Of a DNA stretch of 64,000 bases, positions 45,818 to 59,205 are shown in pieces (the first letter of the stretch is position 1; every line of letters begins with the position of its first letter). The DNA is taken from positions 34,043-98,042 of the forward strand of contig JAHFQY010000003.1 of assembly GCA_023259065.1 (NCBI GenBank), in the 5' to 3' direction. The notes below the pieces were generated by a model, which did no database searches, had not been told where the DNA came from, and saw nothing but the letters and a program-made list of their open reading frames with translations. The stretch comes from Nitrosomonadales bacterium. GTDB taxonomy: Bacteria > Pseudomonadota > Gammaproteobacteria > Burkholderiales > Gallionellaceae. The position numbers and the translations under genes are program-made.

Positions 45818-46087
45818 TTATAACTCGGGGAGAGTCAAGTGCTCCAGCTGCGCTAGCCAGGCCAGTGCTCCATCACGCGAAGTGCCGCACATTTCGGTCG
45901 AAGGTTGCAGCCCGGCGCAAAACGCCGGCCGTTCCGGTTTGCCAAACACCTTGCAGCGCAGCGCCTCATCCAGCTGCACGCACGGCACACCGGCGGGCTT
46001 GCCGTCAGGCATGCCGGGCAAGGGCGAAGTGATGGAGGGCGCGATGCAGCAGGCGGCGCAGTGGGGGCGGCATTGCGCCTTTTTCAT
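45818..46087 (-). CDS. YkgJ family cysteine-cluster protein
   Basis: 89 aa. CRPHCAACC cluster (CxxCxxCC type) plus downstream Cys residues. Confidence 0.7.
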
Positions 46088-47775
46088 AACGGCTCCAGCA
46101 GCTTGATGAAATTGCGCTTTGCCTTGAAACGAATGCGCAATTCAGCCAGATAGCTGTGACGCTCATCCCTGAGTAGCAATGGCAGTAACTTTTTGAGGAA
46201 ATCCAACGACTGCTCGTAACTCCGGTTGCCTCCAAGGTCAGCCCAATATTCCACCTCATGACGATAGATAGGCACACTGATTTGTGGATGGGCCTTTCTT
46301 GCCTGGTCGGCCAACATTAACCACAATGGCCTGCTTGTCACACAGCCACGGGAAACGGCCACGGCTTCTTCCACTCTCTTTTCCTGCAACAGAATTTCCA
46401 GCCGCATGCTGACATCGCGCAAGGCGTCCGGTTTGCGTTTTCTTGCGTGTTCCCACGAGGTAAGCTCGCGTCCCTCCAGAAAAGTAAATGCACGTTTGCG
46501 CCAACTGGCTGCATGTTTGCCTGCCTGCTTCATCAGCGCGAAAAAATGTTCTGCCGACGGCCAATGCTCAAACCATTGCCAAAGCAAGTCATTTGCTTCT
46601 TCATCCAAACCGTCGTGGCGGTAACAGGTCGACAGCTCCACATAAAAGCCTGGATCATCCGGAAACAGTCGATGCGCCTTTTCCGCCCATGTCAGCGCAT
46701 CGCGCTGGCGGTCATATTCGCGGTACTGCGCTATGAGATTCCGGTAATCACATGGCTCCTGCAATTCACGTACCTTGAGTGCCAGCAGTGCATCACGGTC
46801 ATCGTTAAGTGCATACCATACCTCCAGCATGCGTGTTAATTGTTCGCGCTCCAATGATTCGTCGGTCATGGACCAGCGGTTTTTGGGTTTCACGAACGGC
46901 GGCAATTTGGCATGCGCCGCTTCGATACAGCGCCCATACTCCGCCCACGCCGCATCGCCCAGCAGCGGGCGATAAGCCTTCGGATCGAAGAAACCCCAGC
47001 CGTCCGCCAGCATCAGCTTGAAAAAACGCCCACCGAATTTTTTGTCCGGCTGCAAAGCCGCCATCGCCTTGCGATGCAGTTTGGCTAGTTCCTCCATCGC
47101 GCCGCTGATGGCGCCCGCCGAATCGTCGCTTTGCTCCAAAGTCTTGAACAAGCGCAGCAGCGCATACTCGGCTGCTTCTGCGCACACGGCGGGGCGGGAC
47201 TTCACCAGCCCGTGCAGCAACTCAGCGACCTGATCCACACGCCGCGCAAAGTCGAAGCTCTTGCGGTAATCCACAAAGCCACCTCCACGCAACAGAGCGC
47301 CGATCACCTTGTTCAGCTCTGCACCACTCTCTGCTTGAGTGCTCTTGTGCCAGAACAGTAAATCCTTCTCCACTTCGCGGTACTCGGCGGCAATGGAGAG
47401 GAGCTTGTCCACCAGCAATTCCGGCGGCTGGGCGCGCAGGAAAGCCGCAAGTGAGGCGTCGGTAGTCGGCGTTTCTGCAGATGCAAGATCACCGCGTGCC
47501 GCCAGCGCCAACGCGACCTGATGCTTGCAAAAATCGCCATCTGCCGCCGCCGGGCAACTGCAATCGCCGTGCAGATCGCCCCCGTCCAGAAACAGCGCCA
47601 CGTCATAACATGCCCCGCCGCGCACACTGCCGGTTAATTGATGTGCAGAAACCTCCTCCACCTGCGCCCGGCCCTCTTGCGCATACTTTTTTCCGCGTGC
47701 AAAAGCACCATCGCCCGCGAGATTGCGCAGGGTATCGTCGTCAACTTGAGACCAGGAGAGGGAAGAAGAAGTCAT
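46084..47775 (-). CDS. SWIM zinc-finger protein with helical-repeat C-terminal region
   Basis: 563 aa. [20 protein letters not shown] is the CxC...CxH SWIM signature near the N terminus. Stop overlaps the ykgJ-like start. Confidence 0.7.
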
Positions 47776-47859: not shown

Positions 47860-48117
47860 ATGGCAATGGAAACGATACTGTCCGACCTCTCTGTCAGCAT
47901 GACGGAGTTCAAGAAAAATCCAAACGATGCCCTCAGAGAATCGGGAGGGCAAACGGTTGCGGTGCTCAGCCACAACAAGCCTGCCTTCTACATGGTGCCA
48001 CCAGAACGCTATGAGGCCATGCTGGAAGAACTCGACGACTTGCAGTTAGTACGCTTGGCAAAGGAGCGCCTCAAGCAAAAGGGCCGCGCCGTCGAGGTGA
48101 CGCTGGATGACCTCTAA
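47860..48117 (+). CDS. type II antitoxin, Phd/YefM (StbD-like) family
   Basis: 85 aa. SVSMTEFKKNPNDAL...VAVLSHNKPAFYMVPPERYEAMLEELDD. Overlaps the downstream toxin gene by 11 nt. Confidence 0.85.
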   Translation: MAMETILSDLSVSMTEFKKNPNDALRESGGQTVAVLSHNKPAFYMVPPERYEAMLEELDDLQLVRLAKERLKQKGRAVEVTLDDL

Positions 48118-48424
48118 GCAGGCCAAGACACCCACGAAATATCGCCTCAAGTTTGTGCCGGATGCATGGCGCGAGTGGCAGGCGCTGGACGGCTCAATCA
48201 AACAGGCCCTCAAGCCGCTGCTGGCAAAGCGCCTGCAAAACCCGCATGTGCCGGGTTCGCTTCTGCACCGAGAGTTGGCAGGCTGCTACAAGATCAAACT
48301 GCTCAAGCAGGGTTACCGTCTGGTGTACATGGTCGAGGATGGCGTACTGGTTGTGCTGGTGCTGTCAGTAGGGAAACGTGCAGACAATGCGGTGTATCGG
48401 GCGGCAGCAAGGCGGAATAAATGA
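48107..48424 (+). CDS. type II toxin, RelE/StbE family
   Basis: 105 aa. YRLKFVPDAWREWQALDGSIKQALKPLLAKRLQNPHVPGS...CYKIKLLKQGYRLVYMVEDGVLVVLVLSVGKR closely follows the RelE/StbE pattern. Confidence 0.85.
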   Translation: MTSKQAKTPTKYRLKFVPDAWREWQALDGSIKQALKPLLAKRLQNPHVPGSLLHRELAGCYKIKLLKQGYRLVYMVEDGVLVVLVLSVGKRADNAVYRAAARRNK

Positions 48425-48497: not shown

Positions 48498-48791
48498 ATG
48501 ATTACGTCTATCCCCACCCTTGATGAATCCATCGAACGCATGAAACAGGAAATTATTGACGATATCAAAGCCGGGCGAGTGCCCGCAGATTGCTCCTCAT
48601 TTTCCGCCCTGCATGATTATGTTGATGCCAATTGCTACGGTGGATTCTGCGAAGAGAATGAGATGGAAGCATTGATGGATCACTTCGGTGGACTTAATGA
48701 AGAAGAAAGTATGCCTGCCGCCCTGATTGATTATCTGAACGAAGCCCAGAATTCGATTGACCGCTGGATTAAGGGTGGCGGGATACAGTAA
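48498..48791 (+). CDS. hypothetical acidic protein
   Basis: 97 aa ORF with AAGGAG 6 nt upstream of the ATG. About 20 Asp/Glu versus 6 Lys/Arg. No recognisable motif. Confidence 0.45.
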   Translation: MITSIPTLDESIERMKQEIIDDIKAGRVPADCSSFSALHDYVDANCYGGFCEENEMEALMDHFGGLNEEESMPAALIDYLNEAQNSIDRWIKGGGIQ

Positions 48792-48852: not shown

Positions 48853-49311
48853 TCATTTCTCTTGGGTTTCGCAGGGCCATTCAACGAGTTTACTATTCCC
48901 ATATTGTATTTCTGATGGTAACCACGCCAACTGAGACTCCCCAGATTTTCTGAGCCCGCACTCCCACAGGACGATGACACGCCATCCTTCTTTAATCAGC
49001 GCTCGGGTATTAGTTCGGTCACGTTGGATGTTCTGCTTGAACTTTGCTTGCCACATTTTCACGTTGCTGGCAGGCGTATAACTCAGACGACACCCTTTAT
49101 GTCGATGCCAAAAACAACCCTGTACAAAAATTACAGTCTGGTACTTGGGCAAGCAAATGTCCGGCGTACCGTGCAACTCACGAACATGCAACCGATAACG
49201 AAATCCTTTGGCATGAAGAAAGCGCCTCACCCTCATTTCCGGCTGAGTATCTTTGCTCTTGATGCCCGACATCATGCGGGATCGGGTCGATTTATCGACT
49301 ATGTCTGTCAT
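48853..49311 (-). CDS. vsr: very short patch repair endonuclease
   Basis: MTDIVDKSTRSRMMSGIKSKDTQPEMRVRRFL...PDICLPKYQTVIFVQGCFWHRH...FWQAKFKQNIQRDR...GWRVIVLWECGL is collinear with E. coli Vsr. Start at the ATG at 49311, preceded by AGAGG. Confidence 0.9.
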   Translation of the reverse strand: MTDIVDKSTRSRMMSGIKSKDTQPEMRVRRFLHAKGFRYRLHVRELHGTPDICLPKYQTVIFVQGCFWHRHKGCRLSYTPASNVKMWQAKFKQNIQRDRTNTRALIKEGWRVIVLWECGLRKSGESQLAWLPSEIQYGNSKLVEWPCETQEK

Positions 49312-49355
49312 TCTTGGTAACCTCTGCCGAGTTTCCATCTACCTTAGCCGAATTC

Positions 49356-50909
49356 ATGCCGCAACCAAAACCCATTCCCATAGTTGACTTGTTTGCAGGG
49401 CCCGGAGGGCTGGGTGAGGGTTTCTCATCAGTTGATGATGGCAAAGCATTCAAGATAATTGTATCCGCTGAGATGGATGCCGCTGCTCACAAGACTCTTC
49501 GTTTGCGTTCGTTTTACAGAATTCTTCGCCGAAAAGGCGGCGAGTATCTGGAGAGCTATTACCGATACTGCAATGGTGAGGCAGCATCGCCATATAATCA
49601 GTCTACATCAACAGAGTGGGAGCAGGCAGGCAAGGAGGCCAAGCAAATTACTCTAGGTACGAAAGATGGAAACAAAGTACTTGATAACATTCTGAATGAA
49701 GAAGGCATAGGCTCAGAAAAGCCATGGGTTTTGATCGGAGGTCCGCCTTGCCAAGCCTACTCTCTCGTAGGCAGAGCGCGAAACAAAGGCAAACTAGATT
49801 ACAGGGCAGAAGAAGACCATCGCCATTTTTTGTATCAGGAATATTTGCGAATCATCCAGCAATACAAGCCCGCTGTATTTGTAATGGAGAACGTCAAAGG
49901 CATTCTTTCCTCGAAGATCAATGAACAATTAATTTTTCACACCATCCTCCGTGACCTTGCTGACCCAGATCTTGCGATATGTAAAAAATCTGGAGTGGGG
50001 TACAAGATACATTCCCTGGTTACCTCAACCGTATTTGATTCCAGCAGGAATCCAGAAGATATTGATGTACGAGATTTCATTATTCGAGCAGAGGAATATG
50101 GCATACCACAAGCGCGCCACCGCGTAATTTTGCTGGGCATCAGGGAAGATATCGATGCAAAACCGGGCAAACTCCTGAAACAGGAAGAGATGTCTTTTGA
50201 TAAAGTGACAAACGACTTACCTAAGTTGCGAAGCAAGCTGAGTAAGGAAACGGACAGCGCGGAAACTTGGGCTAAAGTAGTAAGGCAACATTTGATTGAA
50301 CTTGCCCGTGATGCAGCACGCAAAAAAGACTATCCAAAGCTGGCGATTGAGCTTGAAAAATGCGCAGCCAAAATCTCGTCGAAGCTTGAGTCGGGTAATT
50401 TGCGCAAAACAAAGCCAGAAAATGTAAAACAGCCGTTCCCAAAACTTAGCTGGTGGTATTCAGATCGCCATCTGAAGGTTTGGCTAAATCATGAAACGCG
50501 TGGGCATATGAATAGCGATCTTCGTCGATACGTCTATGCGGCAGCCTTCGCAAAGGAAAATAAACGCTCCCCCAAAGGCCATGAAGAATTCAGCTTAAAC
50601 GGGCTGGCACCAGCTCACGCCAATTGGGAAACAGGGAATTTTTCTGACAGATTCAGGGTGCAACTTAAAAACTCACCTTCAACTACGATAACCAGCCATA
50701 TTTCGAAAGACGGACACTACTTCATTCATCCCGATCCTTTGCAGTGCCGTAGCCTGACAGTGCGAGAAGCGGCACGGTTGCAAACATTTCCGGACAACTA
50801 TTTTTTTCAAGGCAACCGAACGCAGCAATTTCACCAAGTTGGGAATGCTGTCCCGCCTCTATTGGCGAGATATATAGCCAGCATTGTCAAAGACATACTT
50901 CCGGAATAA
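49356..50909 (+). CDS. dcm: DNA (cytosine-5)-methyltransferase
   Basis: Motif I DLFAGPGGLGEGF, IV GGPPCQAYS, VI FVMENVKG, VIII QARHRV, IX REAARLQTFPD, X QVGNAVPPLL. A long variable region lies between VIII and IX. ATG at 49356 chosen over the TTG at 49314. Confidence 0.9.
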   Translation: MPQPKPIPIVDLFAGPGGLGEGFSSVDDGKAFKIIVSAEMDAAAHKTLRLRSFYRILRRKGGEYLESYYRYCNGEAASPYNQSTSTEWEQAGKEAKQITLGTKDGNKVLDNILNEEGIGSEKPWVLIGGPPCQAYSLVGRARNKGKLDYRAEEDHRHFLYQEYLRIIQQYKPAVFVMENVKGILSSKINEQLIFHTILRDLADPDLAICKKSGVGYKIHSLVTSTVFDSSRNPEDIDVRDFIIRAEEYGIPQARHRVILLGIREDIDAKPGKLLKQEEMSFDKVTNDLPKLRSKLSKETDSAETWAKVVRQHLIELARDAARKKDYPKLAIELEKCAAKISSKLESGNLRKTKPENVKQPFPKLSWWYSDRHLKVWLNHETRGHMNSDLRRYVYAAAFAKENKRSPKGHEEFSLNGLAPAHANWETGNFSDRFRVQLKNSPSTTITSHISKDGHYFIHPDPLQCRSLTVREAARLQTFPDNYFFQGNRTQQFHQVGNAVPPLLARYIASIVKDILPE

Positions 50910-50921
50910 ATCGCTGCGTCA

Positions 50922-50944
50922 CAGTACATTTGTGAAATGTACTG
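50922..50944. promoter_or_regulatory. perfect 10-bp inverted repeat just after the dcm stop (terminator or operator)
   Basis: CAGTACATTT gtg AAATGTACTG. It is followed by an AT-rich tract containing TGTATACA and TATATA upstream of the 78-aa ORF. Confidence 0.4.
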
Positions 50945-51015
50945 CTTGTACTTCAACTGTATACACTATATATTTGCGCCCCATAGGCAATTAATGCGCG
51001 AGTATAGGGGCGTAC

Positions 51016-51252
51016 ATGAGCGAAATTATTCAATCTAAGAACAGAGAAAAATTCATTGAACTGGCGGAAAAACGAGTATCGCGAGTTATCAAGGATATTC
51101 GTTTAGTGGGCAACCTCTCGAATCGAAGTAACTATACGTATACGCAAGAAGATGCACGAAAGATTGTAAAAGCCTTGCGTGATGAGGTTGACGCACTAAA
51201 GGCTCGATTCGATGCAAAAGGTGGCGATGCAAAAGCAGTATTTAAACTCTGA
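51016..51252 (+). CDS. hypothetical small helical protein
   Basis: 78 aa ORF (MSEIIQSKNREKFIELAEKRVSRVIKDIRLVGNL...), with AGGGG upstream. On the same strand between dcm and the GHKL operon. No motif recognised. Confidence 0.5.
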   Translation: MSEIIQSKNREKFIELAEKRVSRVIKDIRLVGNLSNRSNYTYTQEDARKIVKALRDEVDALKARFDAKGGDAKAVFKL

Positions 51253-51420
51253 CGAACCAGTCAGCGGCAGAGGTTTACATGAAATGGCAATTTGAGGAAT
51301 ACCCCAATTCACTAGTCGAAACTGAGGTAACACAGCGAAATCAGTTCCGAAACGACGAGGCTTTCAATATTTGATTGGTCGGCCAGTAATAGCCTTGGAT
51401 CTGATGGAGGCAGGAAAATT

Positions 51421-53370
51421 ATGACAGCAAATTGGTGGTTCGAGCGTAAGCGGCGTGGCCAAAAATCACGTGATCCAATGCAGGCGAGTTTTTTTACCAA
51501 CTCGAGTATAGACGACGATACACACGCATTGGTGCGTGAAGCGATCCAGAATTCGCTGGATGCGAAATCGGATCGCTTATCGACAGAACCTGTGAAGGTA
51601 CGCTTCTCCTTAGGGTCTCACGCTGCGGCAACTGGTGTGATGGCGCGTTATGTGTCGGACGAGGCATGGCAACATTTCAATGCCGAAAACAATGGACTGG
51701 TGTCCCCACCAACGGCGTCTGATGTTTGCAGGTATTTGGTCTATGAGGATTTCAACACGAAAGGACTCGTGGGCGACGTAATGTCCGATGAAGCACAATC
51801 GGAGAACTCATTCTTTTTTTTCATGCGTGCCGAGGGGCAGTCCGGAAAGAAAGAGGGCGAACTAGGGCGCCACGGCATAGGGAAGTACGTCTTTCCCTAT
51901 ACCAGTGGTATCCGTATGTTCATTGCGGCCACTGTTCGAATCACGGATGGTCGTTGCCTCATAGCCGGCCAAAGTGTGCTTAAGTCTCATCAAGTGGATG
52001 GTGAGCGCTACACGCCAGATGGCTGGTGGGGTGGAATAGAAAGGGATGCTAAGGATGACAATTTCCCACTTCCTGTAGAAGATCCAATCCTCTTTGCACA
52101 GCTCGTTACGGACTTCGGTCTCGCAAGATCATCCGATCAGTCGGGTTTGTCACTTATCATGCCTTACGTTCAGCCGGAGGTGACGGTCAATAAACTTTCT
52201 GAGCACGTGGTCTGCGAATACTTCTGGCCGATAATGAATGGCCAGTTAGTGGTCGAGGTAGTTGAAGACGGGCAGTCGCGTATGATCGACAGCTCCAGTA
52301 TTCGTGAGAAACTTGATGGGCTTCTACTGCCCGGACAAATTGATCAGATTGCTCCATTTACAGCGCTCACCTCAAGGGCTCTCAATAGTGGGAGCTATCC
52401 GACTTTCGAACTGAAACCTCCTGAAGTGCCGTCGCAGCCAAAGTGGGATAAGGACTATCTGACCAAGGAAAAAGCAAGTCAGATTCACGAAGAGCTATCG
52501 AAAACTGATGGATTCATTCGTGTTCGTTGCTATCTGCACGTGCAGGAAATCAGCACGAAAGAAGCGAGGAAATCACACTTCGATATATATCTGTCCAAGG
52601 ATGTCTCAGATATTTCGCGTAAACCTCGGTTCCTGCGTGAAGGCATCCTCATCCCTGAGGATCGCGTGCCGAAGGTGCGCGGCTATACAAGCATGGTTGT
52701 GATAGAGGAGGGGTCGCTCGCGACACTGCTCGGAGATTCAGAAAATCCGGCACACACAGAGTGGGAAAAGAATGCGACCAAGTTCAAAGGCAAGTACCGT
52801 TGGGGGGCTACCACCATTGATTTTGTCCGCCTTTCTGTAAGAAATTTTCTGCATCTGATGAGTCAAGGGGATGAAGAGGAGGATGTTGCGATTCTCTCTG
52901 ATATTTTCTATCTCGATCTGCCCGAGAACGATGATGATGTTCCTGGATCTCGCAAGCGTGCGAAACGTGAAAAGCCCGAGCCAGGCACAGTGCCGCCTAT
53001 CGAGCCACCACCGCCACCTCGCCCTCAGTCCTATCGGTTGGCCAAGTTAGAAGACGGCTTCATCCTCAAAGGTCCCACTGAGAATCTTCAGCAAAGACGC
53101 AGATATGTTATCAAGGTTGCGTATGACTTTGCTGGGGCATCGAAAGCTCGTGCATTGAAGCAGTGGGACAAGAAGGATTTTGACCTTGGCAAAGCAAGCA
53201 ATGTCTGTGCTCCCGAAACTGAGAATATGAGCAACGTTGTTATCGGTGGTAACACTGTGGCATTTGAGGCAGACACGAATGATTTCATTCTGTCTGTCCA
53301 CGGGTTTGATCGTCGCAGGGACATAATCGTGGACGTAGATTCGGAGGTGGTGCTCGATGAAACGGTTTAA
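51421..53370 (+). CDS. divergent GHKL (Bergerat-fold, sacsin/MORC/HSP90-like) ATPase, 649 aa
   Basis: N-box LVREAIQNSLDA (ExxxNxxDA), then YEDFNTKGL and GELGRHGIGKYVF (GxxGxG). GGAGG/AGGA precedes the ATG. About 500 further residues have no nameable domain, plus a Pro-rich linker PPIEPPPPPRPQ. Confidence 0.7.
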   Translation: MTANWWFERKRRGQKSRDPMQASFFTNSSIDDDTHALVREAIQNSLDAKSDRLSTEPVKVRFSLGSHAAATGVMARYVSDEAWQHFNAENNGLVSPPTASDVCRYLVYEDFNTKGLVGDVMSDEAQSENSFFFFMRAEGQSGKKEGELGRHGIGKYVFPYTSGIRMFIAATVRITDGRCLIAGQSVLKSHQVDGERYTPDGWWGGIERDAKDDNFPLPVEDPILFAQLVTDFGLARSSDQSGLSLIMPYVQPEVTVNKLSEHVVCEYFWPIMNGQLVVEVVEDGQSRMIDSSSIREKLDGLLLPGQIDQIAPFTALTSRALNSGSYPTFELKPPEVPSQPKWDKDYLTKEKASQIHEELSKTDGFIRVRCYLHVQEISTKEARKSHFDIYLSKDVSDISRKPRFLREGILIPEDRVPKVRGYTSMVVIEEGSLATLLGDSENPAHTEWEKNATKFKGKYRWGATTIDFVRLSVRNFLHLMSQGDEEEDVAILSDIFYLDLPENDDDVPGSRKRAKREKPEPGTVPPIEPPPPPRPQSYRLAKLEDGFILKGPTENLQQRRRYVIKVAYDFAGASKARALKQWDKKDFDLGKASNVCAPETENMSNVVIGGNTVAFEADTNDFILSVHGFDRRRDIIVDVDSEVVLDETV

Positions 53371-54121
53371 CTACACGGGTCGCAAAAAAATTCTTCGCGA
53401 GGATGTGAAGATCCGCCTGCAGGGAAATTTCAACGATAAGCCAATCGTCGATGTAGTGATGAATCTCAGTGATTACGGCTTTCCGCAGGAAAGCAGCGTC
53501 TTTCTGGAGCCACAACGAAAAACCCGCTTCATGAGAATAGAGCTGGGCGAGGCTGCGAACAGCGTCAGGCGAAACAGCATTAAGCTGACAGAGTTTGACG
53601 ATGCCCAGGACATCGACTTTCGGGTGAAAGTAGTCGATGCATCAAAGGGGCTGCTGCTGGGTATTGCGGAAAATATCAAGCCATACAGCAAAGATGACCA
53701 GCTTGACGAAAACCAGCAGAGCATTCTGCCGGTTTCAAGTGTTGATTTGTCTTCGGCTGGAGTGCTATGGCGCATTTCGCAGGATGACCAGAAGGCCGTT
53801 TTGGAGATAGAGCGTGAACTGGGTAGCCGTGATCAGGTCGTGCGCTCGTTGATGTTCAGAGCATTCATTTTGCCTGCAGCAATGCGTCAGATTCTGGTTC
53901 AGGTATTGTCTGAAGACGATTGGGATGAGGAGTTTTCTGATCCGCAGGATTTATCTACCAAGTGGCTGTTGTTTACGCGTCAGATTGGAGCTGGCATGCC
54001 TGAGAAGAACGCCGCAGATCGAAATGAGGAATGGATCGATACAGCTGTTAGGATTCTTGCGAACAGGATTGGTGTTCGCCGGGAGGCAATTGAAGCCTCT
54101 GCTGAAGGAGCATGGAAATGA
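53357..54121 (+). CDS. hypothetical protein, 254 aa, translationally coupled to the GHKL gene
   Basis: ATG at 53357 with GGAGG 9 nt upstream. Overlaps the GHKL stop by 14 nt. No motif recognised. Confidence 0.6.
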   Translation: MKRFNYTGRKKILREDVKIRLQGNFNDKPIVDVVMNLSDYGFPQESSVFLEPQRKTRFMRIELGEAANSVRRNSIKLTEFDDAQDIDFRVKVVDASKGLLLGIAENIKPYSKDDQLDENQQSILPVSSVDLSSAGVLWRISQDDQKAVLEIERELGSRDQVVRSLMFRAFILPAAMRQILVQVLSEDDWDEEFSDPQDLSTKWLLFTRQIGAGMPEKNAADRNEEWIDTAVRILANRIGVRREAIEASAEGAWK

Positions 54122-54837
54122 AAATAATGCGAATGACCGAGCAGGGCAAGCTCCGCTTCATGGGTTTTCTCGACAGTCAGAAGACTGATCAGCCACAGGC
54201 ATTTCCTCAGGAACTGCTGACCCCATCGGAGTTTGCTGAGCCCATCGGTGGAAACAGCGCAGTGCTTGACGGTTTGAATCTTGACGACAAACTGGCAACA
54301 GCCAAGGTGCTAAATGAAATTGTCGTAGACTTGGAACTGATATCAGCAGAGAGAGACCAGGGCTTCTGGACGTGGTGCTCTGCATATCTGTTCGACCGGC
54401 TCTGTAAAAAATCCGGAGGCAAATTGGCACCGGGTGAGATGCCAATTTGGGTGGCTGAGCCCGACAACTGGCAGCGCTACTATAGGCACTATCTTGCTTC
54501 AATCTGGCGTGTGTATGTTGCTCACCGTGAGAAGGTGGAAGAGCTCGTAGTGCTTCTGAACGGGCCTGTGAATACACCAGGAGAACTATGGGCGCAGATA
54601 GCAGCAACGCAGACACTTATTACAAACCCGTCTATGATCGATGCGGTTCATTACCTCTACTGGGATAAAGAGAACCAGACAAGGAAGCGAGGTGCCGGAG
54701 GAGAGAGTCCAAGGCGCCTTACTAAAGTGTTAAGACAATTTGAGCGAACCTATGATTTTGTGGCAATGACTGGAAGCCAGATCGTTGAACTATTGCCGTC
54801 TGAGTTCGATCGTTTCAAGGAGCTGAATGCGGCATAA
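54118..54837 (+). CDS. hypothetical protein, about 239 aa, third gene of the GHKL operon
   Basis: ATGA stop/start overlap at 54118-54121 with GGAG 7 nt upstream. An alternative ATG lies at 54112. No motif recognised. Confidence 0.6.
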   Translation: MKIMRMTEQGKLRFMGFLDSQKTDQPQAFPQELLTPSEFAEPIGGNSAVLDGLNLDDKLATAKVLNEIVVDLELISAERDQGFWTWCSAYLFDRLCKKSGGKLAPGEMPIWVAEPDNWQRYYRHYLASIWRVYVAHREKVEELVVLLNGPVNTPGELWAQIAATQTLITNPSMIDAVHYLYWDKENQTRKRGAGGESPRRLTKVLRQFERTYDFVAMTGSQIVELLPSEFDRFKELNAA

Positions 54838-55196: not shown

Positions 55197-56033
55197 ATGC
55201 GGCCCCAGCCAGCCATCTTTGAAGAACACGCGATCCGTCGCGTGTATGACGAGGCCACTGAGACATGGTGGTTCTCGGTTGTGGACATCGTGCAGGTGTT
55301 GACGCAACAGCAGGATTATCAGACCGCCAGAAAATACTGGAACAAGCTGAAAGAGCGACTAGGCAAGGAGGGTAGTGAGTCGGTGACAAATTGTCACCGA
55401 CTGAAATTGCCTGCCGCAGACGGCAAGAATTACCTCACCGATGTTGCAACTGCCGAGATCCTGCTGCGTCTGGTGCAGTCTGTGCCCAGCCCGAAGGCCG
55501 AGCCGATCAAGTTGTGGCTGGCGAAGGTGGGTTATGAACGGATGCAGGAGATGGCCGATCCCTCACTCTCGCTGGAGCGCGCCCGCGAGACTTGGCAGAA
55601 ACACGGACGCAGCGAGAAGTGGATTCAGCAGCGCATGACCGGGCAAGAGACGCGCAACAAGCTGACCGACTATTGGAAGGAGCACGACATCAAGGAGGGC
55701 GAGGAATACGCGATCCTCACCAACATCATTCATCAGGAGTGGGCCGAGGTGGATGTCAAAACTCACAAGACGATGAAGGGGCTGAAGACGCAAAACCTGC
55801 GCGACCACATGAGCGAGGCCGAATTGATCTTTACTGCGCTGGCAGAACTGTCCACGCGCCAGATCGCCGAGAGCGTGGATGCGACGGGTATGAACGAGAA
55901 TGAAGATGCCGCGAGGAATGGCGGCGGTATCGCCCGGAAAGCTCGGCTGGAGCTGGAAGGTAAAACCGGAAAGAAGGTGGTTACGACAGAAAGTTATTTG
56001 CCCCCTGCCAGGAAGAAACTGGAAAAGAAATAA
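55197..56033 (+). CDS. Bro-N domain protein with DinD-like C-terminal domain
   Basis: 278 aa. N-terminal FEEHAIRRVYDEATETWWFSVVDIVQVL is a Bro-N pattern. The C-terminal half shares YAI / KGLK / DHM..EL landmarks and the KK(L/V)EKK tail with the next gene. GAGGAG lies 8 nt upstream. Confidence 0.7.
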   Translation: MRPQPAIFEEHAIRRVYDEATETWWFSVVDIVQVLTQQQDYQTARKYWNKLKERLGKEGSESVTNCHRLKLPAADGKNYLTDVATAEILLRLVQSVPSPKAEPIKLWLAKVGYERMQEMADPSLSLERARETWQKHGRSEKWIQQRMTGQETRNKLTDYWKEHDIKEGEEYAILTNIIHQEWAEVDVKTHKTMKGLKTQNLRDHMSEAELIFTALAELSTRQIAESVDATGMNENEDAARNGGGIARKARLELEGKTGKKVVTTESYLPPARKKLEKK

Positions 56034-56060: not shown

Positions 56061-56903
56061 ATGGCAAACAAGCGAGTCGACGAGCAACATCACCAGACCT
56101 TCGATGGCATACGCCAGTTCGATGATGAAGACAACGAATACTGGCCTGCGCGCCAGCTTGCGAATGTGCTGGAATATTCAGAGTATCGCCATTTCCTGCC
56201 GGTTATCGAGCGCGCCCGCGAAGCCTGTCGCAACAGCGGTCATCCCGTAACGGACCATTTCGAGGATGTCCTCGAAATGGTCGAGATCGGTTCGGGCGCG
56301 AAACGCCAGATCGCCGATATACGCCTCTCGCGTTATGCCTGTTACCTTATCGTCCAGAACGGTGACCCTTCCAAATCCGTTATCGCTAACGGCCAGACCT
56401 ATTTCGCCATGCAGACCCGGCGGCAGGAACTGAGCGACAACGATGCATTCGCGAAACTATCGGAAGACGATAAACGCCTCGCCATTCGCAACGAATTGGC
56501 CGAGCACAACAAGTATCTTGCCGCAGCAGCCAAGGATGCCGGTGTGGAAACTCCGCTGGACTACGCGATCTTTCAGGATCATGGCTACAAGGGGTTGTAC
56601 GGCGGGCGTGGTGCCAAGGATATTCATGCCGCGAAAGGGCTGAAGAAAAGCCAGAAAATACTCGACCACATGGGCAGTACCGAACTCGCCGCCAACCTGT
56701 TCCGCGCCACGCAAACGGAAGAGAAGCTGCGCCGGGACGAAGTGCGCGGGAAGCAGAAAGCCAACCAGACCCACTATGAAGTGGGCAAGAAAGTGCGCCA
56801 GACTATCGATGAACTGGGCGGCACCATGCCTGAAGCGTTACCGGTGCCGGAGGCGAGTATCAGGCAACTGGAGAGCGGCAAGAAGAAAGTGGAGAAGAAA
56901 TAA
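56061..56903 (+). CDS. dinD: DNA damage-inducible protein D
   Basis: 280 aa. HHQTFDGIRQ...WPARQLANVLEYSEYRHFLPVIERAREACRNSGHPVTDHFEDVLEMVEIGSGAKRQIADIRLSRYACYLIVQNGDPSKSVIANGQTYFAMQTRRQEL is collinear with E. coli DinD. Confidence 0.85.
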   Translation: MANKRVDEQHHQTFDGIRQFDDEDNEYWPARQLANVLEYSEYRHFLPVIERAREACRNSGHPVTDHFEDVLEMVEIGSGAKRQIADIRLSRYACYLIVQNGDPSKSVIANGQTYFAMQTRRQELSDNDAFAKLSEDDKRLAIRNELAEHNKYLAAAAKDAGVETPLDYAIFQDHGYKGLYGGRGAKDIHAAKGLKKSQKILDHMGSTELAANLFRATQTEEKLRRDEVRGKQKANQTHYEVGKKVRQTIDELGGTMPEALPVPEASIRQLESGKKKVEKK

Positions 56904-57077: not shown

Positions 57078-59082
<2,005 letters not shown>

Positions 59083-59205
59083 CTGCAAGTTACTGGAAAC
59101 AGGCCTCAAAAGCAAGCCGGCAGGTTACATTGAGCGCGGCAGGTGGTATTGTTATACTCAAGTCGATTTCAAGAGTGTCATTGCAGACAGCAAAGGGGCA
59201 GGCGC

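Follow-up and report, generated by a model that had tools for sequence, protein, structure and literature searches.

A widespread GHKL ATPase operon linked to cytosine methylase genes: a candidate defense module and distant relative of PDC-M33

We analyzed a 64,000-nucleotide stretch of a Nitrosomonadales bacterium genome (GenBank assembly GCA_023259065.1, contig JAHFQY010000003.1, positions 34,043 to 98,042; hereafter, the window) and focused on a low-GC island that carries vsr, a cytosine methyltransferase gene (dcm), a small open reading frame (ORF) that we call s78, and three tightly coupled genes, here named A, B, and C. The locus is a real, widespread, uncharacterized module, tied to cytosine methylation, that comprises a GHKL motor and a protein with a fold not seen before. 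What is new here is a variant, not covered by existing models, of the PDC-M33/paraMORC-type candidates; the kind itself has already been described. Together with dcm and vsr, A-B-C is probably an antiphage or antiplasmid system. We give a probability of roughly 0.5 to the reading that it is a defense module resembling restriction-modification (R-M), with Dcm providing the self-mark and coupled to A-B-C.

RESULTS

Six genes in a low-GC island

The cassette consists of the following genes, with lengths in amino acids (aa) and coordinates, here and below, given for the window.

vsr, 48853..49338, minus strand: very-short-patch repair endonuclease, 161 aa from the first ATG
dcm, 49314..50909, plus strand: C5-cytosine DNA methyltransferase, 531 aa from TTG
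s78, 51016..51252, plus strand: 78-aa helical protein, between dcm and A
A, 51421..53370, plus strand: 649 aa, GHKL ATPase
B, 53357..54121, plus strand: 254 aa, no fold assigned
C, 54118..54837, plus strand: 239 aa (241 aa from an alternative upstream start at 54112)

An earlier description of this locus, made from the letters alone (hereafter, the sequence-only reading), had reported vsr on the minus and dcm on the plus strand, a 78-aa ORF, and coupled ORFs of 649, 254, and about 239 aa. All are present, and the overlaps can be read from the sequence. B starts at an ATG (53357) that precedes the end of the TAA of A (53370) by 14 nt and has a GGAGG Shine-Dalgarno sequence 8 nt upstream; B and C share an ATGA at 54118 to 54121, with GAAGGAG upstream. 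We use a length of 239 aa for C because its homologues begin with MKI, in agreement with the earlier estimate. Gene calls on an identical metagenome contig (L079) give 152 aa for vsr (start at 49311) and 517 aa for dcm, followed by 78, 649, 254, and 239 aa, and the likely start of dcm is the ATG at 49356, which yields 517 aa.

Vsr matches its Pfam family (E = 2.6e-30), TIGR00632 (1.1e-40), and the PADLOC Vsr model (1.1e-30). Dcm matches PF00145 (2.2e-48), TIGR00675 (1e-41), and a DrmMII-type PADLOC profile (3.1e-96), and its translation has intact catalytic motifs I, IV, VI, VIII, and X (FAGPGG, PPCQ, ENV, QxRxR, and GNAVPP). The GC content is 44 to 52% over approximately 48.45 to 55.0 kb, compared to 54 to 62% in both flanks; within the island, it is 44 to 49% over vsr, dcm, and s78 and approximately 50% over A-B-C. 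The low-GC island that the sequence-only reading had pointed out is therefore real, although its figures (42 to 48% versus about 60%) were slightly exaggerated.

Protein A combines GHKL ATPase and transducer domains

The sequence-only reading had assigned the 649-aa protein to the GHKL fold, citing the motifs LVREAIQNSLDA (ExxxNxxDA N-box), YEDFNTKGL, and GELGRHGIGKYVF (GxxGxG), and had also quoted a PPIEPPPPPRPQ linker; all four occur in the translation. In an alignment of 42 family members, with identities down to 33%, the Bergerat residues E40, N44, and D47, D110, G115, and G118, and G149, G152, and G154 are invariant. The AlphaFold2 model of A has a predicted local distance difference test score (pLDDT) of 85.4 and a predicted template modeling score (pTM) of 0.70. 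A Foldseek search of the Protein Data Bank (PDB) with this model returned 20 matches at E <= 1e-3, all of them GHKL or GHKL+transducer enzymes: topoisomerase (topo) VI-B (1e-10), the ParE/GyrB ATPase (approximately 1e-8), Hsp90, topo II ATPase regions, and SMCHD1. The N-terminal domain (NTD) of MutL fell just past this cutoff, at 3e-3. Structural alignments of 490 to 770 columns cover the GHKL+transducer regions of topo VI-B, GyrB, topo II, SMCHD1, and MutL-NTD. The earlier fold call was therefore right, and A belongs to the GHKL ATPases that carry a transducer domain (topo VI-B/GyrB/MutL/MORC type). The model and alignment divide A into four parts.

Residues ~1-250: GHKL ATPase domain with a conserved N-terminal arm or strap
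Residues ~250-480: transducer/S5-like domain, ending in the invariant LLGDSENPAHTEW motif (E441-x3-H445-T-x-W)
Residues 484-535: disordered basic/Pro-rich linker (pLDDT < 50) containing the PPIEPPPPPRPQ stretch
Residues 539-643: beta-rich C-terminal domain

Single-sequence and profile searches with A found no match in Pfam, NCBIfam, PHROGs, or PDB sequences. Homologues of A are many, and all are annotated as hypothetical; the same holds for B and C, and many of these homologues lie on shared contigs.

B, C, and s78 have no clear match in family libraries

Neither B nor C of the window has a match in Pfam, PADLOC, NCBIfam, PHROGs, or PDB sequence profiles. B has a conserved N-terminal RFNYTGRKKI motif; its other conserved positions are mostly hydrophobic, with few acidic or His residues. 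A profile search with B recovered 1968 representative clusters (50% identity), all of approximately 250 aa and standalone.

C is predicted to be mostly helical. Foldseek searches of the PDB and BFVD with its very confident AlphaFold2 model (pLDDT 93.3, pTM 0.89) gave no structural match, the best E values being 3.1 and 5.4, respectively. Invariant in the C family are W86, W88, R122, Y124, R125, H126, G194, R201, R202, Q209, D215, and E231, and D82 is nearly invariant. Compared with the conserved positions of B, these residues look more like an active or binding site, and C seems the more enzyme-like of the two. The window C does not match DUF6339 (PF19866), and only 3 of 44 C family members match that family, faintly (E = 0.012). 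We regard C as a putative divergent DUF6339-like protein, a link that comes only from the profile-profile comparison described below.

The protein s78, which has a conserved LIGNLSNRSNYxYT motif, has no informative relative in Pfam or the PDB and no match in NCBIfam or PHROGs. With a hidden Markov model (HMM), we found s78 homologues in 13 A-B-C loci, each encoded immediately ahead of A and in the same orientation; s78 is a facultative fourth component of the system. In five loci from Planctomycetota and Acidobacteriota (L008, L015, L030, L031, and L040), the place of s78 upstream of A is taken by a protein of approximately 200 to 250 aa (cluster c11) that has no Pfam match and may be an alternative fourth component.

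The sequence-only reading had stated that the three proteins contain no known nuclease, helicase, or Walker-A family, and searches of Pfam, NCBIfam, PADLOC, PHROGs, and PDB sequences bear this out. Vsr aside, no nuclease family was matched by any ORF between 48.4 and 55.1 kb (Pfam, NCBIfam, PADLOC, and PHROGs), and the models of A and C match no nuclease.

A, B, and C are inherited together across bacterial phyla

A scan of 185,579 genomes, one per GTDB species, yielded 317 relatives of A, and we mapped the loci of the best 78 of these by tblastn and clustering of called ORFs. A-B-C occur in that order in 57 of the 78 loci, with A-B only in 8 and A alone in 13, and B lies directly 3' of A in all 65 loci that have it. 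The 57 loci come from Pseudomonadota, Planctomycetota, Verrucomicrobiota, Chloroflexota, Acidobacteriota, Bacteroidota, Nitrospirota, Actinomycetota, Myxococcota, Gemmatimonadota, Hydrogenedentota, and one bacterium of the candidate phyla radiation (CPR). A, B, and C are thus co-inherited as one operon in more than 12 phyla, which answers in the affirmative the question of co-occurrence raised by the sequence-only reading.

The loci with A-B only or A alone are mostly from Planctomycetota sub-branches or truncated contigs. The Planctomycetota examples (A-B only, L048 to L051, L056, and L075; A alone, L054, L058, L060, L064, L068, L069, L072, L076, and L077) have ordinary metabolic or membrane neighbors and no dcm, and these sub-branches, having lost C or both B and C, may put the ATPase to a domesticated or otherwise distinct use.

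The A-B-C family travels on chromosomal islands. It had no close match in curated collections of 72,556 plasmids and 50,697 phages (one weak phage match), and only 3 of 2.9 million viral contigs (IMG/VR) had a match; the plasmid relatives are all distant and of PDC-M33 type. In Aeromonas veronii, the entire insertion between two housekeeping genes, a glyoxalase gene and rnfA, consists of A-B-C, dcm on the minus strand, and vsr, and in marine gammaproteobacteria trmE is followed by s78-A-B-C, dcm on the minus strand, and vsr. These islands, in Aeromonas and a marine gammaproteobacterium, have no other restriction gene. Another contig has an s78-A-B-C-dcm-vsr cassette on a mobile element, beside BrxR and a Bil-like ubiquitin system.

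Several loci lie in a defense or mobile setting, with neighbors that include EcoRII-C, VapBC, BrxR with the Bil-like system, HEPN-Hsp70/UvrD, Shedu, and AIPR. EcoRII-C endonuclease lies between C and dcm/vsr in 6 loci. A VapBC-like pair (MazE-type antitoxin and PIN toxin) lies directly upstream of A, complete in L013, L018, L019, L036, and L041 and represented by one gene each in L017 and L034. The lineage with this pair reads A-B-C-dcm-(76-aa ORF)-vsr, which suggests an eight-gene cassette stabilized by the toxin-antitoxin pair. No helicase recurs in the neighborhoods of the 78 loci.

In two unrelated metagenome-assembled genomes (MAGs; L035, 13382-18941, and L039), three genes 3' of C encode a HEPN_Swt1-Hsp70-like protein of 977 aa, a UvrD-like helicase of approximately 400 aa, and an unassigned protein of approximately 470 to 525 aa. 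The Arthrobacter PDC-M33 locus described below, too, has a gene for a HEPN_Swt1/DUF3320 protein in front of it.

The full triplet is specifically linked to dcm and vsr

Of the 57 A-B-C loci, 34 have dcm somewhere in the flanking sequence that we fetched, and in 21 the distance is no more than 500 bp. When only the 29 A-B-C loci with 5 kb or more available on each side are counted, dcm lies within 5 kb in 18. None of the 19 nontruncated loci with A only or A-B only has dcm (Fisher p = 1.4e-6 versus 34/57), and the linkage to an m5C methyltransferase gene, noted by the sequence-only reading, is specific to the complete triplet. vsr was found in 26 of the 57 loci, within 150 bp of C in several.

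The A-B-C and dcm genes occur in nine arrangements. In 10 loci from several phyla, dcm directly follows C on the same strand, with gaps of 16 to 66 bp; elsewhere, dcm directly precedes A, or vsr and dcm form convergent pairs. In 4 loci, the order is dcm-A-B-C-vsr, where A-B-C holds the place expected of the restriction (R) gene. We conclude that the linkage of A-B-C to Dcm/Vsr is specific but nonobligate.

The cassette as a divergent relative of PDC-M33

PDC-M33 consists of a GHKL ATPase (PDC-M33A), PDC-M33B, and PDC-M33C/DUF6339 and was predicted by "guilt by embedding" (Payne et al., bioRxiv 10.1101/2024.01.29.577857). It is one of 145 PDC candidates, all untested, that were derived from genes located inside BREX, DISARM, and Type I R-M systems; PDC-M33 was not among the PDC systems covered by a study that put some of them to the test. 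The sole match of A in the defense libraries is to PADLOC PDC-M33A, and it is partial, covering profile positions 30 to 269 of 627 (E = 4.9e-22). Distant members of the A family have the same partial match, compared to 3.5e-82 over positions 4 to 622 for a true PDC-M33A member from Arthrobacter. The PDC-M33B and PDC-M33C models matched neither B nor C of the window, nor those of three distant loci, at E <= 0.1.

PDC-M33-type proteins on plasmids are 24 to 27% identical to A (tblastn). Arthrobacter agilis plasmid pAAG24-152 carries dcm, vsr, a type II restriction endonuclease gene, and a HEPN/DUF3320 gene and then, in order, a 75-aa ORF and genes for a GHKL protein of 628 aa, a protein of 295 aa, a "DUF6339 family protein," and Shedu; the GHKL, 295-aa, and DUF6339 proteins are true PDC-M33A, B, and C (3.5e-82, 6.4e-30, and 1e-31). 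An Enterococcus faecalis plasmid has the order HTH-AIPR-GHKL-288 aa-262 aa, and a Halorussus plasmid has dcm followed at some distance by GHKL-356 aa-DUF6339.

We compared the two groups by profile-profile alignment with hhalign, using PDC-M33 profiles from only seven loci or sequences, since a metagenome scan with Arthrobacter PDC-M33A gave a single locus. A and PDC-M33A-type proteins align with a probability of 100% and are co-linear over 549 columns. The aligned stretch runs through an S/L-E-N-x-x-H-T-x-W motif and the linker and also takes in the C-terminal domain. C aligns with PDC-M33C/DUF6339-type proteins with a probability of 97.4% (E = 1.1e-11, 220 columns). The match of B to PDC-M33B-type proteins is weak (E = 1.7e-3 local, 1.3e-4 global), and mismatched control pairs gave E values of 0.26 to 0.47. 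In two actinobacterial loci, Arthrobacter and L082, the s78 HMM also picks out the small ORF that lies ahead of PDC-M33A (full-sequence E = 1.8e-21 and 4.2e-21), and s78 is the best-conserved link to PDC-M33.

Because the profiles of A, C, and s78 match, we place the window cassette in a divergent sister clade of PDC-M33, a distant one that existing PADLOC models miss. The sequence-only reading had called the operon undescribed and without a match to any named system. That claim is not borne out as worded: A hits PDC-M33A, the profiles tie A, C, and s78 to PDC-M33, and the class was predicted in 2008 (PMC2292703).

Surroundings of the cassette in the window

Other features in and around the island are as follows.

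46084-47775, minus strand: SWIM zinc-finger/TPR protein, 563 aa; PADLOC PDC-S62 (7.6e-38), N-terminus of DpdE (9e-7)
47860-48424, plus strand: Phd/YefM antitoxin and ParE toxin genes with an 11-nt overlap; PF02604 (2.1e-13), PF05016 (5.6e-8)
48498..48791, plus strand: 97-aa acidic ORF inside the low-GC stretch, also on the identical contig L079
50922..50944, plus strand: hairpin with a perfect 10-bp stem and 3-nt loop (AGTACATTTG/CAAATGTACT-type), 13 nt past the dcm stop
55197-56033 and 56061-56903, plus strand: two tandem DinD/Bro-N paralogues; PADLOC PDC-S13 (2.3e-119 and 1e-121)

The Phd/ParE pair lies at the left edge of the island, and the DinD/Bro-N paralogues, which have host-like GC content, lie directly 3' of C; the first matches phrog_15286 (3.8e-87), and the second matches NCBIfam DinD (7e-134). 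We counted Phd/ParE, PDC-S62, and the two PDC-S13 genes as defense or mobile context, and the SWIM/TPR protein (PDC-S62) adds to the defense-island character of 46 to 57 kb. The 97-aa ORF has no homologue among the 78 related loci and no family match in Pfam, NCBIfam, PADLOC, or PHROGs; its membership in the system is uncertain. Beyond lie housekeeping genes, with a cation diffusion facilitator (CDF) transporter, rhodanese, and uppP on the left and thiC, pcm, and tolC on the right. ThiC shares a 90% cluster with Sideroxydans lithotrophicus, so a betaproteobacterium of the Gallionellaceae is the probable host. No att-like direct repeats, tRNA genes, or integrase that would delimit the island were found.

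A terminator-like scan and inspection of the sequence show the hairpin at 50922 to 50944, followed by an AT-rich stretch; the hairpin could be a terminator or operator parting dcm from the s78-A-B-C operon, but promoter and terminator scans did not rise above the expectation from shuffled sequence. The spacer between s78 and A (51253-51420) is 168 nt here versus approximately 20 to 45 nt in the closest relatives. Within it lies an ORF of 31 aa (51279-51374), which is among the gene calls for the identical metagenome contig. Rfam had no match in the intergenic regions from dcm to A, this spacer included. Farther away, a thiamine pyrophosphate (TPP) riboswitch lies upstream of thiC (58981-59083, minus strand; full 105-position model, 50.4 bits, E = 3.7e-9). 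It is absent from the default Rfam scan because its 50.4 bits are below the gathering score of 54.3.

DISCUSSION

A model for coupling between Dcm and A-B-C

In the model that we favor, vsr, dcm, s78, and the coupled A-B-C make up a mobile unit of five or six genes that would act like an R-M system without a classical restriction enzyme. Dcm would mark host DNA, and Vsr would repair the T:G mismatches that arise when 5-methylcytosine (5mC) is deaminated. A would dimerize on ATP into a DNA clamp, as in other GHKL+transducer enzymes (topo VI-B, GyrB, MutL, and MORC), and with B as an adaptor and C, it would act on incoming DNA that lacks the mark. B and C would supply the recognition and effector functions, the outcome being either cleavage by a nuclease site not yet recognized as such or trapping and replication block, and s78 may be a small regulator or accessory subunit. 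Of the interpretation in the sequence-only reading, which is partly supported overall, the proposal that the operon is the effector or sensor arm of a methylation-guarded system is still an inference.

We favor R-M-like logic because A-B-C occupies the R-gene place in some loci and because islands exist that consist of A-B-C, dcm, and vsr alone. The GHKL+transducer fold, the operon structure, the linkage to dcm, the defense or mobile neighbors, the low-GC island, the presence of dcm by PDC-M33 on two plasmids, and the discovery of this sister in a screen for genes nested in BREX, DISARM, and Type I R-M systems also speak for coupled defense.

Evidence against coupling and the case for independent defense

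Several findings weigh against a coupling of A-B-C to Dcm, and most of them favor its main rival, in which A-B-C is an independent, methylation-blind defense system (e.g., second-line or abortive and triggered by phage factors) that sits beside Dcm/Vsr cassettes. Defense genes nest within one another, and Dcm/Vsr would then be a separate R-M remnant, often orphaned. First, approximately 40% of the A-B-C loci (23/57) show no dcm in the fetched flanks. The same is true of 11 of the 29 that offer 5 kb or more to either side and of Burkholderia sp. 8Y, which is the closest complete genome (A 75% identical). These loci count against coupling because a true R partner should not persist without its methylase. 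A Pfam census of 105 neighbor proteins of dcm-less A-B-C loci found no recurrent methylase family; a PADLOC census of the same proteins gave scattered matches only (e.g., kinase-type PD-T4-6, PDC-S11, and MkoA, two each), and some of these loci have ordinary metabolic neighbors. Second, the EcoRII-C endonuclease completes a Dcm/Vsr system beside A-B-C in 6 loci, as a type II endonuclease does beside PDC-M33 in Arthrobacter, and the methylase there therefore already has a partner. Third, pairwise identities of A and Dcm are nearly uncorrelated (Spearman 0.13, Mantel p ~0.06), with partners swapped relative to the phylogeny of A: the Dcm found with the nearest relatives of A (69%) is a different one, 41 to 42% identical to that of the window, and lineages whose A is only 31 to 37% identical carry a Dcm that is 45 to 50% identical. 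Fourth, searches of sequence libraries with A, B, and C and Foldseek searches with A and C gave no match to a nuclease, helicase, or 5mC-reading domain. Literature searches (PDC-M33, DUF6339, and GHKL-plus-methylase defense) returned no characterization of, and no experiment on, A-B-C or PDC-M33. PDC-M33 itself, moreover, was discovered embedded in other systems, as independent defense would lead one to expect.

Methylation-blind defense nevertheless leaves the pattern of linkage to be accounted for. The association with dcm is confined to the full triplet, one Dcm subfamily recurs with very distant A-B-C lineages, the dcm-A-B-C-vsr operons put the triplet exactly at the R-gene position, and there are islands with nothing but A-B-C, dcm, and vsr. 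The recurring subfamily is that of the window (approximately 510 to 530 aa), which accounts for 15 of 32 A-B-C partners. Because one subfamily recurs even though the identities of A and Dcm are uncorrelated, Dcm can be seen as a preferred methylase that has been repeatedly exchanged. On balance, we consider independent defense rather unlikely, though it is the strongest competitor of coupled defense.

We are more doubtful still about a particular form of methylation-gated immunity that dispenses with a classical nuclease, in which a prokaryotic MORC-like clamp of A would work with B and C, as two proteins of previously unseen fold, to recognize DNA lacking 5mC and then trap or silence it, or cleave it through a novel site in C.

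Repair-helper and topology readings

A third possibility is that A-B-C is a private MutL-like complex that stimulates Vsr or targets it to T:G mismatches from deaminated Dcm sites. To our knowledge, most Dcm-Vsr pairs in nature lack A-B-C, which argues against such a role, as does the absence of vsr from 31 of the 57 A-B-C loci and of dcm from 23. The module is also a horizontally mobile low-GC island, and its PDC-M33 sister adjoins AIPR and Shedu and is embedded in BREX, DISARM, and Type I systems. In its favor are the MutL-like GHKL+transducer architecture of A, the position of vsr within 150 bp of C in several loci, and precedent, since MutL of Escherichia coli stimulates Vsr and a functional MutL-Vsr interaction is established (cited in PMC2292703). 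We regard this reading as very improbable. Last and least probable, a DNA-topology or compaction machine of a mobile element (a MORC-like silencing or partition clamp with no immune role) would fit the structural similarity of A to topo VI-B, SMCHD1, and MORC-type ATPases, the lack of a detected nuclease, and the metabolic neighbors of some dcm-less loci, but the family is essentially absent from the plasmid, phage, and viral collections searched, no Toprim/Spo11-type partner was detected, and the dcm/vsr and defense-gene context would be left unexplained. Both readings are less likely than either coupled or independent defense.

Significance

If A-B-C is a true defense system, it is a widespread one (approximately 2,000 clusters for B; A in 317 of 185,579 genomes) that current detection models miss. 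Two of the three core proteins have no known fold or function, and the motor belongs to the same kind of GHKL+transducer ATPase as MutL, topoisomerases, and the eukaryotic MORC silencers. Work on the module could reveal new effector chemistry in DUF6339 proteins and would give a function to PDC-M33 and its sister clade. Learning how the clamp and the methylase cooperate would put to the test a prediction made in 2008, that MORC-type ATPases first arose as parts of restriction systems, and if methylation-gated immunity without a classical nuclease is real, the module would be a bacterial counterpart, possibly in an ancestor-like state, of the eukaryotic link between MORC proteins and DNA methylation in genome defense. 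If A-B-C proves to be methylation-blind, it is still a candidate defense system with clear point mutants to try.

Comparison with known systems

Topo VI is the closest structural relative of A, in that topo VI-B chains are its best matches (E = 1e-10 to 1e-7) and that topo VI, too, has separate partner subunits; however, TM-scores between A and topo VI-B are low (0.3 to 0.4), and identities are 7 to 10%. A topo VI-like enzyme was provisionally rejected, with no Toprim or 5Y-CAP match for B or C in Pfam or PDB profiles and no PDB fold matching the C model. Mza, BREX, DISARM, Druantia, Detocs, and MADS were also rejected: A, B, C, and s78 hit no signature model of these systems in PADLOC v2.0.0, and Dcm matches only generic C5-methyltransferase models (DrmMII, DruM, and MTase_II). 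Mza-type clusters commonly adjoin dcm/vsr, and Mza, from the work of Gao et al. in 2020, is reportedly a defense system with a GHKL ATPase and experimental support.

With type II m5C R-M systems accompanied by Vsr (EcoRII type), the locus shares an intact Dcm and Vsr and a low-GC mobile island, and A-B-C stands in the R-gene position in several loci. It differs in that no PD-(D/E)xK, HNH, PLD, or GIY-YIG endonuclease was found in the window and that A-B-C often occurs without a methylase or, in the 6 loci noted above, beside EcoRII-C.

paraMORC3 has been validated as a variant of Shedu, type I-D, with VcSduA (PMC12137116). Like it, A-B-C would use a GHKL ATPase as the regulatory or motor part of an antiphage system, but A has no fused DUF4263/PD-(D/E)xK nuclease, and A, B, and C match no PADLOC model for Shedu; the lack of DUF4263 in A led us to reject Shedu/paraMORC3 as an identity for the module.

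GHKL+S5 ATPases (MORC and paraMORC1-5) were described in operons with cytosine methylases and Vsr by Iyer, Abhiman & Aravind (2008, PMC2292703) and were proposed to loop or reorganize DNA for an associated nuclease (PMC2292703). Like these proteins, A has an N-terminal GHKL domain and an S5/transducer domain, and its family is sporadic and laterally mobile, with cytosine methylase and Vsr neighbors. The hallmark of paraMORC2 is an ExxxH motif located where the S5 domain ends (PMC2292703); compared by this described motif, A has an invariant ExxxH (E441-N-P-A-H445) that aligns with the PDC-M33A-type motif, and this provides a lead toward a paraMORC2 identity of A. The paraMORC operons center on superfamily II (SF-II) helicases and restriction endonuclease (RE)-fold nucleases (PMC2292703), whereas the window cassette has neither, and across the A-B-C loci no helicase recurs and EcoRII-C occurs in only 6. 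In addition, paraMORC2 was described as mainly cyanobacterial and Gram-positive (PMC2292703), and partners corresponding to B and C are absent from the text of PMC2292703.

PDC-M33 offers the closest parallel in gene order and sizes, with a GHKL protein of approximately 630 to 650 aa followed by proteins of approximately 250 to 350 and 240 to 260 aa and with overlapping starts and stops. The A-B-C clade is mainly found in Gram-negative and environmental phyla, unlike the PDC-M33 examples found here, which come from Actinomycetota, Bacillota, Rhizobium, and Halobacteria. Both clades have the E-x3-H-T-x-W motif in A, and both adjoin dcm/vsr, PDC-M33 lying by dcm on the Arthrobacter and Halorussus plasmids.

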